DNA of 64,000 bases from Escherichia coli (GCF_044324785.1 NZ_CP172127.1), one strand, 5' to 3'. Shown: positions 48,262 to 64,000, numbered from the stretch's first letter. The notes: a model not told the origin generated them from the letters alone. Numbers and translations: made by a program.

Positions 48262-48593
48262 ATATCGATCTGAGTCGTTTTTTCAACAGGATTTGGAAGG
48301 GATGCATTCAAAGACAAACTCTGCTCTTTCTCCTGCGCCTTTTCTGCCTGCTGTCTTTGCAACTGCGCCAGTTGTGTTTCCAGTAGGGTGATTTGCTGCT
48401 GAATCAATTCGGCCTGTTTTTGCTTGTCTTCAGCACTGCCGCTAGTGTCTGCAATCTCTTTAATTTGTTGAGTGAGTTTGATGATTTGCTGACTTATCCG
48501 CGCAATTTGTGAAGCAACATCGCTACCTTCTGATGCCCTGTTACTACTCTGTGTTTGTATGGAAGGAATTGAAGTTGAAGAGATAGTGGCCAT
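48252..48593 (-). CDS. small Q-rich coiled-coil protein, FlxA-like
   Basis: 113-aa ORF with GAGGA 6 nt upstream of ATG; S/T-rich N-terminus then heptad-like Q/L/I repeats ([18 protein letters not shown]...[23 protein letters not shown]); overlaps the yfeR 3' end by 10 bp. Confidence 0.5.
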
Positions 48594-48681
48594 TGTTCAG
48601 TCCTCGTCACTGTACGAGGTAATATCGGCAGAAGAACAAGGAACTTGAGAAGAAAAATCAATCTTACAAACCGCATATAGC

Positions 48682-55974: not shown

Positions 55975-57222
<1,248 letters not shown>

Positions 57223-57250
57223 TTCAACTGGCGTCGTACCAGGCATCACT

Positions 57251-57285
57251 GGCGGATGCGGCGTAAAACGCCTTATCCGCCCTAC
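57251..57285. repeat. REP element (first of a BIME pair)
   Basis: ggcggatgcggcgtaaaacgccttatccgccctac. Confidence 0.65.
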
Positions 57286-57303
57286 GCGTTAAAGAGACGG
57301 TTT

Positions 57304-57340
57304 GTAGGCCCGATAAGACGCACTAGCGTCGCATCAGGCC
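57304..57340. repeat. REP element (second, inverted orientation)
   Basis: gtaggcccgataagacgcactagcgtcgcatcaggcc. Confidence 0.65.
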
Positions 57341-57363
57341 TTGTGCTCCATTGGCAAATGTGT

Positions 57364-57690
57364 TTAATGGCGGTGTCCATGTCCGCGGCCTTTTCCGCGA
57401 TGATCGTCACGATCGCGCCAGCCTTCACGATAGCCACGCTCATACGCTTTACGCTTATCCCAGCCACGATGGTAGCCATTATCATGACGCCACCAGCGGT
57501 TTTTACGCCATTCATAATTGCGATGCCAGTAGTCACGGTCGCGCCAGTGACCACCGTCCCAGTAATTACCGTAATGATCGCGATCGCCAATTTGTAATTT
57601 GATTGATGGCAGTAGGGTGATTTCACCTGCGTTTGCCGCAAGCGGGGTAAATGCCATCAGGGCGGCCGCCAGAAACAGTGACCTGAACAT
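57364..57690 (-). CDS. ypeC: secreted DUF2502-family protein, His/Arg/Trp/Tyr-rich
   Basis: 108 aa with signal peptide [21 protein letters not shown]; low-complexity C-terminus ...[17 protein letters not shown]. Confidence 0.75.
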
Positions 57691-57804
57691 TGTTATTCTC
57701 CTTCACGATCGAAGCCGTCAGCGGCCTGTTAACGCAATATTACGGGGAGGTAAAGCCCCGTATCATCGCCATAACTCTTAAATCATAAAGGAGAGCATTT
57801 TTTG

Positions 57805-59061
57805 CTAAACGTTATCGTGGGGTGGCTGTTGCTTCGGACGATTGACCATCATCATCGGCTTACCTGCTAATAACAGCCATGCCGGAAGCATGACGATACA
57901 GAGCAGCGGTAGCAATGTGGTATTGGGTACAACGACTGCCGCCATAAAAAGACTTAACCAGCCATCGCGTGTTACCACCAGCACGATGCCGAGAATAGCG
58001 CAGGAAACGGTTATTGCCGCTGGAACGGCGGGAACGTGCTCATGCAGCATCAACCCTAATGCCACGCCGACAAACACTGCCGGGAAGATTCGCCCACCGC
58101 GAAAGCCACTGGCGGCAGCAACGACCAGGGCGGCAAGTTTAATTACCGCCAGCAAAAAGTAATCGCTGGTGCTGAAAGCCTGATTTGCCACCATCTGCTG
58201 CATCTCATCCAGCCCTTTAAACAGCGAAACTGGTCCACCAATAACCCCCAGAATACCGAGAATAAATCCGCCAATACCCAGCACGAGCACCGGATTTTTC
58301 ATTTGATGCATCATCGCGTGCAACCGTGGTAAGCACCATACGGCGACCATCCCTGCTGCGATGGCAATCGCCGCGACAATTGCACCGCTGAGAATATCGG
58401 TCATTTGCATCTGTCCGTAATGCGCAATGGGCAGTGAAAAATGAGGATGGAAAAATAATCCGGTAGTTAGTGCACCAGCTGCTGCCGCCATTAACGGCGC
58501 AAAGAGACGATCCCATAGCGGAACTTCACTACTGCCATTTAAGGTTTGCGAAAATATCAACGCCGCTGCAACAGGTGTGCCAAACAGCGCGCCGATGGTT
58601 CCGGCAGAGGATAAAATAGTCCACTCCATTCGGTTGACGCGCGGTAACAGACGAGCGCCAATGGCAACCGCAAGGGCGATATTGACGGTCATGATCGGAT
58701 GTTCTGGCCCCAGGCTGACGCCACCAGCAAGACCAAGAATTAATGCTACGATAAGTCCTGGTAGCGCAGAGGGCGGAACTGGTGCGCCGATCAGCGGTTC
58801 ACAGGCGGGGTCTGGTCCGGCATGACCCTGGCTGAAACGGATAACCAACCCCACTGCAATACCCGTTAGCGTTAATATACCGATGATCCAGAGAGGTGAA
58901 TCCTGGGCTATCCCCAGAGTTCCCGGCAGTCGTTGCCAGAGCAAATTCTGTAATACCGAGGCGATTTTCATCACCACAATCAGAATAAGACTGGACGCAA
59001 TCCCAATTGCCACGGCGGGGAGCGATAATAACAACATGGTTCTGGCTCGCGGATGGAGCAT
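57805..59061 (-). CDS. yfeO: ClC-family putative ion channel/transporter
   Basis: 418-aa polytopic membrane protein with ClC-like GxGIP-type segments. Confidence 0.8.
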
Positions 59062-59264
59062 GTTCTATTCCTTATGCGGGGTCAGATACTTAGTTTGCCC
59101 AGCTTGCAAAAAGGCATCGCTGCAATTGGTGCTGAAACGATAAAGTAATTGTGTGACCCAGATCGATATTTACAGGGAGCCTGCCTTTCCGGCGTTGTTG
59201 TTATGCCCCCAGGTATTTACAGTGTGAGAAAGAATTATTTTGACTTTAGCGGAGCAGTTGAAGA

Positions 59265-60230
59265 ATGACAAAGTATGCATTAGTCGGTGATGTGGGCGGC
59301 ACCAACGCACGTCTTGCTCTGTGTGATATTGCCAGTGGTGAAATCTCGCAGGCTAAGACCTATTCAGGGCTTGATTACCCCAGCCTCGAAGCGGTCATTC
59401 GCGTTTATCTTGAAGAACATAAGGTCGAGGTGAAAGACGGCTGTATTGCCATCGCTTGCCCAATTACCGGTGACTGGGTGGCAATGACCAACCATACCTG
59501 GGCGTTCTCAATTGCCGAAATGAAAAAGAATCTCGGTTTTAGCCATCTGGAAATTATTAACGATTTTACCGCTGTATCGATGGCGATCCCGATGCTGAAA
59601 AAAGAGCATCTGATTCAGTTTGGTGGCGCAGAACCGGTCGAAGGTAAGCCTATTGCGGTTTACGGTGCCGGAACGGGGCTTGGGGTTGCGCATCTGGTCC
59701 ATGTAGATAAGCGTTGGGTAAGCTTGCCAGGCGAAGGCGGTCACGTTGATTTTGCGCCGAATAGTGAAGAAGAGGCCATTATCCTCGAAATACTGCGTGC
59801 AGAAATTGGTCATGTTTCGGCAGAGCGCGTGCTTTCTGGCCCAGGACTGGTGAATTTGTATCGCGCGATTGTGAAAGCCGACAACCGCCTGCCAGAAAAT
59901 CTCAAGCCAAAAGATATTACCGAACGCGCGCTGGCTGACAGCTGCACCGATTGCCGCCGCGCGTTGTCGCTGTTTTGCGTCATTATGGGCCGTTTTGGCG
60001 GCAATCTGGCGCTCAATCTCGGGACATTTGGCGGCGTGTTTATTGCGGGTGGTATCGTGCCGCGCTTCCTTGAGTTCTTCAAAGCCTCTGGTTTCCGTGC
60101 CGCATTTGAAGATAAAGGGCGCTTTAAAGAATATGTCCATGATATTCCGGTGTATCTCATCGTCCATGACAATCCGGGCCTTCTTGGTTCCGGTGCACAT
60201 TTACGCCAGACCTTAGGTCACATTCTGTAA
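59265..60230 (+). CDS. glk: glucokinase
   Basis: 321 aa [52 protein letters not shown]... Confidence 0.95.
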
Positions 60231-60448
60231 CTCCTTCCTGTTATATCGGGAGATAACTCTCCCGATAATCTTTTAAATCATACAGTTAATTAAACTTTTC
60301 TTTGTGTCCCCTCACAAGGCCGACCTGCGTCACACTTCCGTACAGCGGGATTAATTCTCCAGTAAATGCATTATTTGTCTGGTAACGGCGATTTGTTTTG
60401 CACGTTCATAATTTCACTCGTCAACTATCACTGAACGAGGAATTAACG

Positions 60449-60775
60449 ATGAGTAAGAAACTGATTGCTTTATGTGCGTGCCCGATGGGCCTGGCTCACA
60501 CCTTTATGGCCGCTCAGGCGCTGGAAGAAGCGGCGGTAGAAGCCGGTTATGAAGTGAAAATTGAAACCCAGGGTGCGGACGGCATCCAGAATCGTCTGAC
60601 CGCGCAGGATATCGCCGAAGCGACCATCATCATCCACTCCGTGGCGGTTACGCCGGAAGATAACGAACGTTTCGAATCACGCGACGTTTATGAAATCACT
60701 TTGCAGGACGCAATTAAAAACGCTGCGGGCATCATCAAAGAAATCGAAGAGATGATTGCCTCTGAACAACAGTAA
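60449..60775 (+). CDS. fryB: PTS fructose-like EIIB component
   Basis: 108 aa from ATG at 60449 (MSKKLIALCACPMGLAHTFMAAQALEEAA...), Cys phosphorylation site. Confidence 0.8.
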   Translation: MSKKLIALCACPMGLAHTFMAAQALEEAAVEAGYEVKIETQGADGIQNRLTAQDIAEATIIIHSVAVTPEDNERFESRDVYEITLQDAIKNAAGIIKEIEEMIASEQQ

Positions 60776-60796
60776 TATTCGACAGGGATAATTGTT

Positions 60797-62044
60797 ATGG
60801 CCATTAAAAAACGCAGTGCAACCGTTGTGCCTGGCGCATCCGGTGCGGCAGCGGCAGTTAAGAATCCGCAGGCCTCTAAAAGCAGCTTCTGGGGTGAACT
60901 CTCGCAGCATGTGATGTCAGGGATTTCACGCATGGTGCCGACCTTAATTATGGGCGGTGTGATCCTCGCTTTCAGCCAGCTGATTGCTTATAGCTGGCTT
61001 AAAATTCCTGCTGATATCGGCATCATGGATGCTCTTAATAGCGGGAAATTCTCCGGTTTCGACCTCTCCTTACTGAAATTTGCCTGGTTGTCGCAGTCCT
61101 TCGGCGGCGTGTTGTTTGGTTTTGCCATTCCGATGTTTGCTGCATTTGTGGCGAACTCTATCGGTGGCAAACTGGCGTTCCCGGCTGGTTTTATCGGCGG
61201 GTTGATGTCTACCCAGCCGACGCAACTGCTGAACTTCGATCCCAGCACTATGCAATGGGCGACCTCTTCGCCGGTGCCGTCCACCTTCATTGGTGCCCTG
61301 ATTATTTCTATCGTTGCGGGTTACCTTGTGAAGTGGATGAACCAGAAAATCCAGTTACCGGATTTCCTGTTAGCGTTCAAAACCACATTTTTGCTACCGA
61401 TTCTTTCCGCCATTTTTGTCATGCTGGCGATGTACTACGTCATCACCCCCTTTGGTGGCTGGATCAACGGCGGTATCCGTACCGTGCTGACTGCCGCAGG
61501 TGAGAAGGGCGCGCTGATGTACGCGATGGGGATCGCCGCGGCGACAGCAATCGACCTTGGTGGCCCGATCAACAAAGCAGCTGGTTTCGTTGCCTTCAGC
61601 TTTACCACTGACCACGTATTACCGGTTACCGCGCGTTCCATCGCTATTGTTATTCCGCCGATTGGTCTGGGTCTGGCGACCATTATCGACCGCCGTTTAA
61701 CCGGCAAACGTCTGTTCAGTGCTCAGCTTTATCCGCAGGGTAAAACCGCCATGTTCCTGGCGTTTATGGGGATCAGTGAAGGTGCGATTCCGTTTGCGCT
61801 GGAAAGCCCCATTACCGCCATTCCGTCCTATATGGTCGGCGCGATTGTCGGCTCAACCGCCGCTGTCTGGCTGGGCGCAGTGCAATGGTTCCCGGAGTCC
61901 GCTATCTGGGCATGGCCGCTGGTCACTAACCTCGGCGTCTACATGGCGGGGATCGCGCTGGGGGCAGTCATTACTGCGCTGATGGTGGTGTTCCTGCGTC
62001 TGATGATGTTCCGTAAAGGCAAATTGTTAATCGATAGCCTGTAA
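60797..62044 (+). CDS. fryC: PTS fructose-like EIIC component
   Basis: 415-aa polytopic membrane protein directly downstream of fryB. Confidence 0.8.
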
Positions 62045-62058
62045 GAAGGAAAATCCAG

Positions 62059-63144
62059 ATGACATTACTCGCTTCGCTGCGTGACTGGCTTAAGGCGCAA
62101 CAACTGGATGCGGTGCTTCTCTCCTCACGGCAGAACAAACAGCCGCATCTGGGGATCTCCACCGGATCAGGCTATGTGGTGATTAGCCGTGAAAGTGCGC
62201 ACATTCTGGTGGACTCGCGCTATTACGCGGATGTCGAAGCCCGCACGCAAGGTTACCAGCTACATTTGCTTGACGCGACACACACGCTTGCAACCATCGT
62301 CAATAAAATCATTGCCGATGAGCAGTTGCAAACGCTCGGTTTTGAAGGCCAGCAGGTAAATTGGGAAACCGCGCACCGCTGGCAGTCTGAACTCAATGCG
62401 AAACTGGTAAGCGCCACGCCGGATGTGCTGCGGCAAATCAAAACGCCAGAGGAGGTGGAGAAAATCCGCCTCGCCTGTGGGATTGCCGATCGCGGAGCGG
62501 AGCATATTCGCCGCTTTATTCAGGCGGGGATGAGCGAATGCGAGATTGCTGCTGAACTGGAGTGGTTTATGCGCCAGCAGGGCGCAGAAAAAGCCTCTTT
62601 CGATACCATTGTCGCCAGTGGCTGGCGTGGGGCGCTGCCGCACGGCAAAGCCAGCGACAAGATTGTTGCAGCGGGCGAGTTTGTCACTCTCGATTTCGGT
62701 GCGCTGTATCAGGGCTACTGCTCTGATATGACGCGTACCTTGCTGGTGAATGGCGAAGGGGTGAGCGCCGAATCTCACCCGCTGTTTGACGTCTATCAGA
62801 TTGTCCTGCAGGCACAGCTCGCAGCAATCTCCGCGATTCGCCCCGGCGTGCGCTGCCAGCAGGTTGACGATGCCGCGCGCCGGGTCATTACAGAAGCAGG
62901 TTATGGCGACTATTTCGGTCATAACACCGGTCACGCTATCGGCATTGAAGTCCATGAAGATCCGCGTTTTTCACCGCGGGACACCACGACGCTACAGCCA
63001 GGCATGTTGCTGACCGTGGAGCCGGGGATTTATTTGCCAGGGCAAGGGGGCGTGCGCATCGAAGATGTTGTGCTGGTCACCCCGCAAGGCGTAGAAGTGC
63101 TCTACGCCATGCCGAAAACAGTGTTGCTCACGGGAGAGGCATAA
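62059..63144 (+). CDS. ypdF: Xaa-Pro aminopeptidase (M24 family)
   Basis: 361 aa with M24 metal-binding motifs ([13 protein letters not shown]). Confidence 0.8.
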
Positions 63145-64000
63145 TGGATTTATCGCTATTAAAAGCGTTGAGCGAGGCAGATGCGATCGCCTCCTCGGAA
63201 CAGGAAGTACGGCAGATCCTGCTGGAAGAAGCGGATCTCCTGCAAAAAGAAGTGCGATTTGACGGCCTGGGATCGGTGCTGATCCGCCTCAATGAATCGA
63301 CAGGTCCGAAGGTGATGATCTGTGCGCATATGGATGAAGTGGGATTTATGGTGCGCAGCATCTCCCGCGAAGGGGCGATTGATGTGCTGCCAGTTGGCAA
63401 CGTGCGCATGGCTGCCCGCCAGCTGCAGCCGGTGCGTATCACCACCCGTGAAGAGTGCAAAATTCCCGGTCTGCTTGATGGCGACCGGCAGGGAAATGAC
63501 GTCAGCACCATGCGCGTGGACATTGGCGCTCGCTCGTATGACGAAGTGATGCAGGCGGGAATTCGTCCAGGCGATCGCGTCACCTTTGATACCACTTTTC
63601 AGGTTCTCCCTCACCAGCGGGTAATGGGGAAAGCGTTTGATGATCGCCTCGGTTGCTACCTGCTGGTGACGTTACTGCGCGAACTACACAGCGCCGAACT
63701 GCCTGCGGAAGTGTGGCTGGTGGCCACCTCCAGCGAAGAGGTGGGATTACGCGGCGGGCAAACCGCTACCCGTGCGGTTTCACCGGACGTTGCGATTGTG
63801 CTGGATACCGCCTGCTGGGCGAAAAACTTTGATTATGGCGCGGCTAACCATCGCCAGATTGGTAACGGGCCGATGCTGGTATTAAGCGACAAGTCGCTGA
63901 TTGCGCCGCCAAAACTTACCGCGTGGATTGAAACCGTGGCGGCAGAAATTGGCGTACCGTTGCAGGCGGATATGTTCAGCAACGGCGGCACAGATGGCGG
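63145..64000 (+). CDS. ypdE: M42-family aminopeptidase (5' partial, runs off the window end)
   Basis: ATG at 63145 overlapping the ypdF stop; translation [51 protein letters not shown]... Confidence 0.8.

Follow-up and report, generated by a model that had tools for sequence, protein, structure and literature searches.

The fry operon of Escherichia coli and the gene neighbourhoods of its EIIC family: a possible phosphotransferase route for glycosylated amino acids or short peptides

The fry locus beside the closest described systems

The MngA/MngB system and other operons that combine a phosphotransferase system (PTS) with a GH38 alpha-mannosidase take up 2-O-alpha-mannosyl-D-glycerate or other alpha-mannosides, which are then cleaved by the cytoplasmic GH38 enzyme. 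Here we analyse positions 60449-64000 of a 64,000-nt stretch of DNA from Escherichia coli (NZ_CP172127.1, GCF_044324785.1; the whole stretch is referred to as the window), which contain fryB, fryC and ypdF in full and the 5' part of ypdE, as seen from a six-frame listing of open reading frames (ORFs) and their translation. The locus almost certainly represents the fry operon of E. coli, fryB-fryC-ypdF-ypdE-(fryA), of which the 5' four-fifths are present and which corresponds to b2387-b2383 of K-12. This operon has already been described in E. coli, and the feature itself is not new. Our comparison shows that one family of PTS enzyme IIC (EIIC), to which FryC belongs, alternates across loci between GH38 and sets of peptidases and lyases.

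The K-12 fryBC-ypdFE-fryA operon has the same genes, order, junctions and flanks as the locus in the window (glk upstream; fryA and ypdC downstream in relatives). Allelic divergence is the sole difference, with proteins 0-11 residues apart. The PTS-GH38 operons share with fry the same fructose-type EIIC family, with 51-62% identity between FryC and the GH38-linked EIICs of, among others, Hungatella, Leptotrichia and S. suis. They differ in that fry has no glycoside hydrolase and carries an M24 and an M42 gene in that position. E. coli MngA is only a distant paralogue of FryC. The frvABXR and sgcXBCQAER operons resemble fry as putative PTS operons that include an M42 gene and have overlapping junctions, but their EII families and architectures are different (FrvB is an EIIBC; SgcBC are annotated as separate EIIB and EIIC), and they have neither an M24 partner nor a dedicated enzyme I (EI) and HPr. 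In addition, YpdE scores only 193 bits with the FrvX-type model. All three M42 genes of K-12 (ypdE, frvX and sgcX) lie inside putative PTS operons with overlapping junctions (K-12 4089855-4092823; 4526106-4531651).

A further likeness is found in the thioalcohol pathway of Staphylococcus hominis, which uses a Cys-Gly-3M3SH dipeptidase and a PatB C-S lyase. The Firmicute relatives of fry likewise hold a PepV-like M20 peptidase together with a PatB-family lyase, and the shared logic is peptide trimming followed by beta-elimination of the conjugate. The S. hominis pathway involves no PTS and no sugar, however, E. coli fry lacks the lyase, and the similarity is at family level, below the equivalog cut-off.

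The genes of the locus are arranged as follows.

60449..60775, + strand: fryB, PTS enzyme IIB (EIIB), 108 aa, from its ORF and family profiles; Cys11 in CPMGLAHT
60797..62044, + strand: fryC, PTS EIIC membrane permease, 415 aa, from its ORF and family profiles
62059..63144, + strand: ypdF, M24B Xaa-Pro-type aminopeptidase, 361 aa, from its ORF, profiles and a PDB match
63144..64000, + strand: ypdE, M42 aminopeptidase, first 285 of 345 codons; the window end cuts the gene

The spacing is 21 nt between fryB and fryC and 14 nt between fryC and ypdF, and ypdF and ypdE overlap by 1 nt (GCA TAA TG), the ypdE start lying within the ypdF stop codon. A Shine-Dalgarno-like purine run is located 6-9 nt 5' of the start codon in all four genes. 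The ORFs, the Pfam and NCBIfam profiles and the megablast annotation agree with the gene identities and order given by an earlier note on this DNA, and the gaps of 21, 14 and -1 nt agree with its description of the junctions as overlapping or nearly so. The note had also proposed to look for fryA just past the window end. In K-12 and in strain N3, the closest genome (98.7-99.3% identical), fryA indeed begins 24 nt past ypdE and encodes 831 aa, and the AraC-type gene ypdC is convergent with it. Judged from this anatomy and the published operon listing, fryB through ypdE would form a single transcription unit that starts after the glk terminator.

FryB is a PTS enzyme IIB of the fructose/mannitol type. 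It matches PF02302 PTS_IIB at 71 bits (cut-off 23.6) and TIGR00829 at 92 bits (cut-off 76.9), and its phospho-acceptor motif contains Cys11 in CPMGLAHT. FryC matches PF02378 PTS_EIIC at 53 bits (cut-off 30.7) and barely reaches the fructose subfamily model TIGR01427 (159 bits, cut-off 157.55). It falls short of the fructose-specific FruA model (98.9 of 793 bits) and of the FrwC-type (140.5 of 426), MngA (102.5 of 763) and FrvB (88.5 of 806) models. The label 'fructose-like' used in the earlier note is appropriate as the name of a family and not as that of a substrate; FryB and FryC miss every NCBIfam equivalog cut-off. FryA, as encoded in N3 and K-12, joins HPr (residues 10-84), EI (118-683) and EIIA (687-828) in this order.

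YpdF can be assigned by its sequence to peptidase family M24B. It matches PF00557 Peptidase_M24 at 246 bits, PF01321 Creatinase_N at 71 bits and the equivalog model PRK09795 at 811 bits (cut-off 393), and PDB entry 5CNX, 'Aminopeptidase YpdF', matches it at 777 bits. The five metal-ligand motifs are present, with D212, D223, H292, E321 and E335. YpdE is similarly classified as a member of peptidase family M42, with a match to PF05343 Peptidase_M42 of 242 bits on the 285 residues within the window, and one to the equivalog PRK09961 of 677 bits (cut-off 412) when the full-length N3 copy is scored. The window part of YpdE contains the motifs AHMDE (H62), FDDR (D166/D167), SEEVG (E198/E199) and VLDT (D221). 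Its fifth and last ligand, H308, lies outside the window and is conserved in N3 and in PDB entry 1YLO from Shigella flexneri, which matches YpdE. According to a paper from 2012, there are three M42 peptidases in E. coli, and YpdE is the one that had been characterised by then (PMC3511314).

One EIIC family alternates between glycosidase and peptidase/lyase sets

The FryC family is tight. In an alignment of 14 sequences the mean column identity is 70%, and the members are 50-85% identical to FryC. A single-sequence search of a 50% identity library made the family look tiny, with 55 hits, often fragments, at 1e-30 or better; its breadth was revealed by a query with a 54%-identical relative together with a genome scan. 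The family extends to Bacillota, Fusobacteriota and a Mycoplasmatales-like lineage. Outside Enterobacterales, the nearest FryC relatives are EIICs of 50-67% identity, from Bacillota and Fusobacteriota, whose genes are linked to that of a GH38 alpha-mannosidase in some loci and to those of the same two peptidases in others. In the Mycoplasmatales-like contig, a fused EIIABC that is 54% identical to FryC is paired with M24 and M20 peptidases.

The gene neighbourhoods were compared at 80 species-level loci, the best 80 of 127 hits, in which neighbours were identified by phmmer against reference proteins from Pfam-annotated contigs. They fall into the following classes.

Enterobacterales class: EIIB-EIIC-M24-M42-FryA (plus an AraC-type gene), 36 loci
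GH38 class: PRD regulator-EIIA-EIIB-EIIC-GH38 alpha-mannosidase, 17 loci
M42 and lyase class: PRD regulator-EIIA-EIIB-EIIC-M24-M42-'aminotransferase', 15 loci
M20 and lyase class: M20-PRD regulator-EIIA-EIIB-EIIC-M24-'aminotransferase', 8 loci, plus 1 without a detected M20
Rahnella class: LacI-M20-EIIB-EIIC-M24, 2 loci
Streptobacillus class: PRD regulator-EIIA-EIIB-EIIC-'aminotransferase', no peptidase, 1 locus

The 'aminotransferase' of these clusters is a PatB-family C-S beta-lyase, which scores 340-357 bits with the NCBIfam model (cut-off 340). The cluster M20 is a PepV/Sapep-type dipeptidase with a weaker match, of 217 bits, to the Cys-Gly-3M3SH dipeptidase model. For the Firmicute M24 and M42 proteins the best models are the YpdF and YpdE equivalogs, at 337 and 393 bits, respectively. 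The M42 and lyase class occurs in Enterocloster, Hungatella, Breznakia, Caproiciproducens, Lachnospiraceae and Ruminococcaceae, and the M20 and lyase class in C. difficile, Pelosinus, Lucifera and others.

In the neighbour-joining tree, EIICs with a GH38 neighbour are intermixed with those linked to peptidases. The sister group of the Enterobacterales clade contains the Firmicute loci with M24, M42 and PatB and a small Hungatella GH38 group. Particularly, the EIIC of Streptobacillus notomytis nests among the GH38-linked Leptotrichiaceae, and a PatB-type lyase directly follows it (L083, 7138-10284), so that the lyase sits in the glycosidase slot of the Leptotrichiaceae relatives. By their position, the peptidase pair of M24 and either M42 or M20, with the PatB-type lyase added in Firmicutes, would stand in for the GH38 enzyme of the sister operons. 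Moreover, a mannose-6-phosphate isomerase gene is directly adjacent in five PatB-class loci. In C. difficile CD10-165 (L087, 2678-11664), the cluster comprises a PepV-like M20, a PRD regulator, EIIA, EIIB, EIIC, a YpdF-like M24 and a PatB-type lyase; the EIIC is FryC-like with 53% identity, and the mannose-6-phosphate isomerase gene is divergent from the rest of the cluster. A literature search for this C. difficile PTS-M20-M24-PatB cluster found none. RidA was considered as a regular cluster member and rejected, as it is adjacent in L009 alone and lies 3-4 kb off in L056, L061 and L063.

Within Enterobacterales, FryC orthologues of at least 65% identity are found in Citrobacter, some Salmonella subspecies, Kluyvera, Enterobacter, Buttiauxella, Hafnia, Serratia and others. 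The six-gene cassette, EIIB-EIIC-M24-M42-FryA with a convergent AraC-type gene, occurs in 36 species and occupies at least three unrelated chromosomal contexts in the Pfam-annotated contigs. fryA was detected in 32 of the 36 loci; it is truncated or absent in the other four, and at least some of these run into a contig end. A metagenome-assembled genome of Enterobacterales (L050) keeps a PatB-like gene after fryA. Two candidate members of the module were rejected. The YpdA/YpdB (PyrSR) pair is absent beside the cassette in Salmonella and the other contexts examined. AlaC, a candidate for the PatB partner that the operon lacks in E. coli and Salmonella, scores 42 bits against the cluster lyase, compared with 293-584 bits for true members, and is not an orthologue.

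A proposed pathway and its alternatives

The alternation of GH38 with peptidase/lyase sets, the lyase-only Streptobacillus locus and the adjacent mannose-6-phosphate isomerase together point to glycosyl-amino acids or glycosyl-peptides as the substrate class. We tentatively propose, with rather less than even confidence, that fry is a PTS whose substrate is a conjugate of a sugar with an amino acid or a peptide, and that YpdE and YpdF take part in its catabolism. The placement of all three E. coli M42 genes in PTS operons and the improved growth of a fryA deletion on LB, a peptide-rich medium (PMC5364489; see below), also speak for it. It is possible, although we hold this with more doubt, that a PTS pathway for glycosylated amino acids or short peptides is shared across phyla and that fry is its enterobacterial form. 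Its substrates could be alpha-mannosyl-O-Ser/Thr left over from yeast or host glycoproteins, or else conjugates of the S-glycosyl-Cys type.

In the proposed pathway, FryA would act as a single HPr-EI-EIIA chain that takes phosphate from phosphoenolpyruvate (PEP), needs neither PtsI nor HPr, and passes it on to Cys11 of FryB. FryC would import the substrate, which FryB would phosphorylate during entry. The EIIC family as a whole would carry glycosides that resemble alpha-mannosides. In the peptidase class, the sugar may have as its aglycone an amino acid or a short peptide, probably one that contains Pro, for example an O-glycosyl-Ser/Thr or S-glycosyl-Cys peptide. The peptide part would then be trimmed in the cytoplasm by YpdE, as a broad aminopeptidase, and YpdF, as an Xaa-Pro aminopeptidase. 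In a characterisation dating from 2005, YpdE reportedly halts before Pro and YpdF takes Xaa off Xaa-Pro; the two specificities would thus be complementary on Pro-rich peptides and suit Ser/Thr/Pro-rich O-glycosylated peptides. In the Firmicute versions, the PatB-type lyase may release the sugar phosphate from Ser or Cys through a beta-elimination, a step that would be done hydrolytically by GH38 in the sister operons. In E. coli, the lyase might be encoded elsewhere, or the pathway might stop at the glyco-amino acid. The E. coli version would use its own FryA and an AraC-type regulator where Firmicutes have a PRD regulator and a separate EIIA.

Several points weigh against this proposal. The E. 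coli operon encodes no glycosidase or lyase, which leaves sugar-phosphate release unexplained there, and the suggestion of a mannoside derives from gene neighbourhoods in other phyla and not from chemistry. To our knowledge, PTS EIIC permeases are not peptide carriers, and we know of no substrate, inducer or phenotype of the fry operon. The in-vitro activities of YpdE and YpdF were reportedly on ordinary, unmodified peptides. As for regulation, the direct repeat upstream of fryB, described below, is by itself modestly unusual, in that 76 of 2000 shuffles reach its match of 13/19. Finally, chromatin immunoprecipitation with exonuclease digestion (ChIP-exo) revealed no binding sites of YpdC, the AraC-type protein, under the conditions tested; its authors note that YpdC may require appropriate growth conditions for activity (PMC8464067).

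The earlier note had called the linkage of PTS components with peptidases a known arrangement that awaits a functional explanation. This is an accurate description, since the operon is annotated in K-12 and the literature makes no functional assignment; our searches on the fry and ypd genes, under older names too, and on a pathway of PTS, PatB and peptidases found none. The pathway outlined above has to be weighed against other readings of the same genes.

FryABC could be an ordinary hexose or hexitol PTS, while YpdE and YpdF serve as aminopeptidases of the cytoplasm in general and are simply co-expressed with it, for example coupling carbon uptake to the use of peptide nitrogen. The two enzymes are bona fide members of metallopeptidase families with intact active-site motifs, ordinary peptides are their reported in-vitro substrates, and the depositors of 5CNX call YpdF an aminopeptidase. 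A mutation in fryA also affects growth in lysogeny broth (LB): after 24 h in LB culture, strains with an in-frame fryA deletion showed better growth on LB plates, and the study concluded that the deletion is advantageous in prolonged LB culture (PMC5364489). What makes this reading unlikely in our view is the constancy of the association. The peptidase pair is tied to this EIIC family in both Pseudomonadota and Bacillota, a pair of M24 and M20 is tied to it in the Mycoplasmatales-like contig, and in every case the pair comes directly after the EIIC, where the sister loci have GH38. Mere co-regulation is unlikely to have survived so much rearrangement. In Firmicutes the pair also accompanies a PatB-type lyase.

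A second alternative keeps a conjugate as the substrate and changes the role of the enzymes: in vivo, YpdE and YpdF might be amidohydrolases that act on a conjugate of a sugar with something other than a peptide, for example by deacylating an N-aminoacyl or N-acyl amino-sugar phosphate delivered by the PTS. Family M24 includes hydrolases other than peptidases, and YpdF has weaker matches to ectoine hydrolase and dimethylsulfoniopropionate (DMSP) lyase models; the clan of M42 and M20 contains deacylases. For a long time, M42 proteins encoded in sugar operons were annotated as glucanases (PMC3511314), and the placement of all three E. coli M42 genes within PTS operons is in line with such a role. 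Two exopeptidase families that are interchangeable with a PepV-type dipeptidase, however, fit stepwise trimming better than a single deacylation, and the PatB lyase partner requires a free alpha-amino acid moiety. We regard this alternative as rather improbable.

It is distinctly improbable that Fry is a regulatory phosphorelay that senses PEP or carbon in the manner of PtsP-PtsO-PtsN and controls the peptidases or other targets, with FryC as the sensor. The self-contained HPr-EI-EIIA chain of FryA, the label ptsP given by the NCBI pipeline in the N3 record, weak matches of the FryA EIIA domain to PtsN models and the lack of any known growth substrate would suit such a relay. The Firmicute relatives, by contrast, have ordinary separate EIIA, EIIB and EIIC with PRD-type regulators, and the GH38 and mannose-6-phosphate isomerase genes linked to the same EIIC family represent a typical catabolic PTS layout.

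The state of the genes in E. coli bears on the question of whether the operon is functional at all. By megablast, 5412 of 5426 complete E. coli genomes carry the fryB, fryC, ypdF and ypdE block, with identities of 95.4-99.3%, and its coverage is below 80% in the other 14. K-12 is ~97% identical over the stretch, with 94.5-97.6% nucleotide identity per gene. Relative to K-12, the four genes contain no internal stops and no length changes (ypdE within the window). There are no amino-acid differences in FryB, 4 in FryC, 11 in YpdF and 5 in YpdE, and the ratio of nonsynonymous to synonymous substitution rates (dN/dS, Nei-Gojobori) is 0 for fryB, 0.044 for fryC, 0.114 for ypdF and 0.042 for ypdE, at dS of 0.10-0.23. 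With intact frames and such low dN/dS, the four genes are not pseudogenised and are under purifying selection. The earlier note had named pseudogenisation in this strain as a finding that would speak against it, and nothing of the kind is seen. A decaying cryptic remnant that is functionless at present is therefore very hard to credit: laboratory expression is not known, and the low-coverage genomes and some fused or truncated ORFs would fit decay, but against these stand the dN/dS of 0-0.11, near-universal presence in E. coli, retention of the cassette in 36 Enterobacterales species and conservation of the upstream non-coding region too.

The fused ORFs among E. coli isolates are FryC-YpdF fusions of 657-688 aa and one FryC-M42 fusion of 653 aa (P0082, P0083, P0112, P0085), presumably arising from small indels or deletions at the tight junctions. 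In E. coli B379 (NZ_CP090456.1, 1507418-1507684), one of few such genomes, the match is limited to the glk-fryB intergenic stretch and the annotated feature there is yfdV, which implies that the fry operon has been deleted. Strain N3 carries the annotated pseudogenes eutT, eutR, pdxK and xapA in the region syntenic to window positions ~4800-49700, and its fry genes are intact.

Upstream region and candidate regulation

The glk gene ends at 60230, and the region between it and fryB contains the following elements.

60244..60267, + strand: terminator-like hairpin after glk, with a 10-bp perfect stem, a 4-nt loop and a T-rich tail; conserved in K-12
60319..60334, + strand: ccGA-N6-TCACA box, a putative CRP-like site with a weak left half; 70-90% or more conserved in 37 regions
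60347..60365, + strand: distal copy of a 19-nt direct repeat, GGGATTAATTCTCCAGTAA; TCCaG..Aa core conserved across genera
60367..60385, + strand: proximal copy of the repeat, TGCATTATTTGTCTGGTAA, abutting the -35 position; GCaT.aTTt.TC.GgTAAc 70-90% or more conserved in 37 regions
60407..60412, + strand: candidate -10 hexamer CATAAT; invariant or nearly so in 37 sequences
60437..60442, + strand: Shine-Dalgarno GAGGAA for fryB, from sequence reading

The hairpin at 60244-60267 is predicted to set the fry unit apart from glk. Pattern scans of the four genes found no strong internal promoter, and the 4 terminator-like sites within them are fewer than the shuffled-sequence mean of 5.8. In the 129 nt that lead up to the fryB ATG there is no difference from K-12, although dS in the neighbouring genes is 0.1-0.2. 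A footprint was obtained by aligning the upstream regions of 37 Enterobacterales, with FryC identity down to 73%. It reveals four conserved blocks upstream of fryB separated by unconserved spacers, among them the 21 nt after the proximal repeat. The two repeat copies match at 13 of 19 positions at an offset of 20 nt, which is the best pair in the intergenic region. No good -35 element is present, AACGGC lying at 17-nt spacing from CATAAT. The transcription start is predicted near 60419, and the centre of the ccGA-N6-TCACA box lies ~92 nt upstream of it.

At the araBAD and rhaBAD promoters, an AraC-family activator binds tandem repeats that abut the -35 element, and CRP binds further upstream. 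The predicted layout of the fry region resembles them in its ~19-nt direct repeats at about -72 to -34, its weak or absent -35 and its TCACA box near -92, and also in the AraC-family gene that is co-inherited with fry. Transcription of fry probably starts at an activator-dependent promoter with the -10 element CATAAT, no -35 element and repeats abutting the -35 position. The most likely activator would be the AraC-type YpdC, because it is the only regulator that travels with the cassette; we infer that it may bind at the direct repeats and respond to an inducer. Such inducer-dependent activation would explain the silence of the operon in the laboratory. The ccGA-N6-TCACA box may similarly be a CRP site.

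Two other promoter elements were considered and rejected. A sigma-54 promoter 5' of fryB would need a distance of 10 nt between its GG and GC elements, and in ACGGCGATTTGTTTTGCA this distance is 11 nt. A canonical CRP site at TTGTGTCCCCTCACAA (~60303-60318) has the wrong half-site spacing and is unconserved outside Escherichia. An E-value search of positions 57000-64000 against Rfam for a leader RNA or riboswitch returned nothing in the fry region.

The only hits of this search are two matches to the repetitive extragenic palindromic (REP)-type Rfam family naRNA4, which lie on the - strand in the mntH-ypeC intergenic region (57201-57282 and 57307-57378); they are sub-threshold, at 40 bits against a gathering score of 59.5. 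Relative to N3, the window lacks yfeS (at ~36525) and yfeN-xapA-xapB-xapR (48263-48666). Both arrangements are common presence/absence variants of E. coli, the junction cysM|yfeK being found in 4038 genomes and yfeR|FlxA-like|tRNA in 1299.

The locus itself is an ordinary core-genome operon of E. coli, and fryABC, ypdE, ypdF and ypdC are among the K-12 genes without a physiological role. The new context is the cross-phylum comparison, which points to a small and testable class of substrates, glycosyl-amino acids and glycosyl-peptides, and the conserved repeats 5' of fryB provide a concrete candidate operator for YpdC. If the proposed pathway is true, fry would be the first PTS shown to use glyco-amino acids or glycopeptides, and the substrate range of the PTS would be extended. 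It would also give functions to the orphan genes fryABC, ypdE, ypdF and ypdC and to a conserved operon of C. difficile and Enterocloster, and would explain the recurrence of M42 peptidases in sugar operons.

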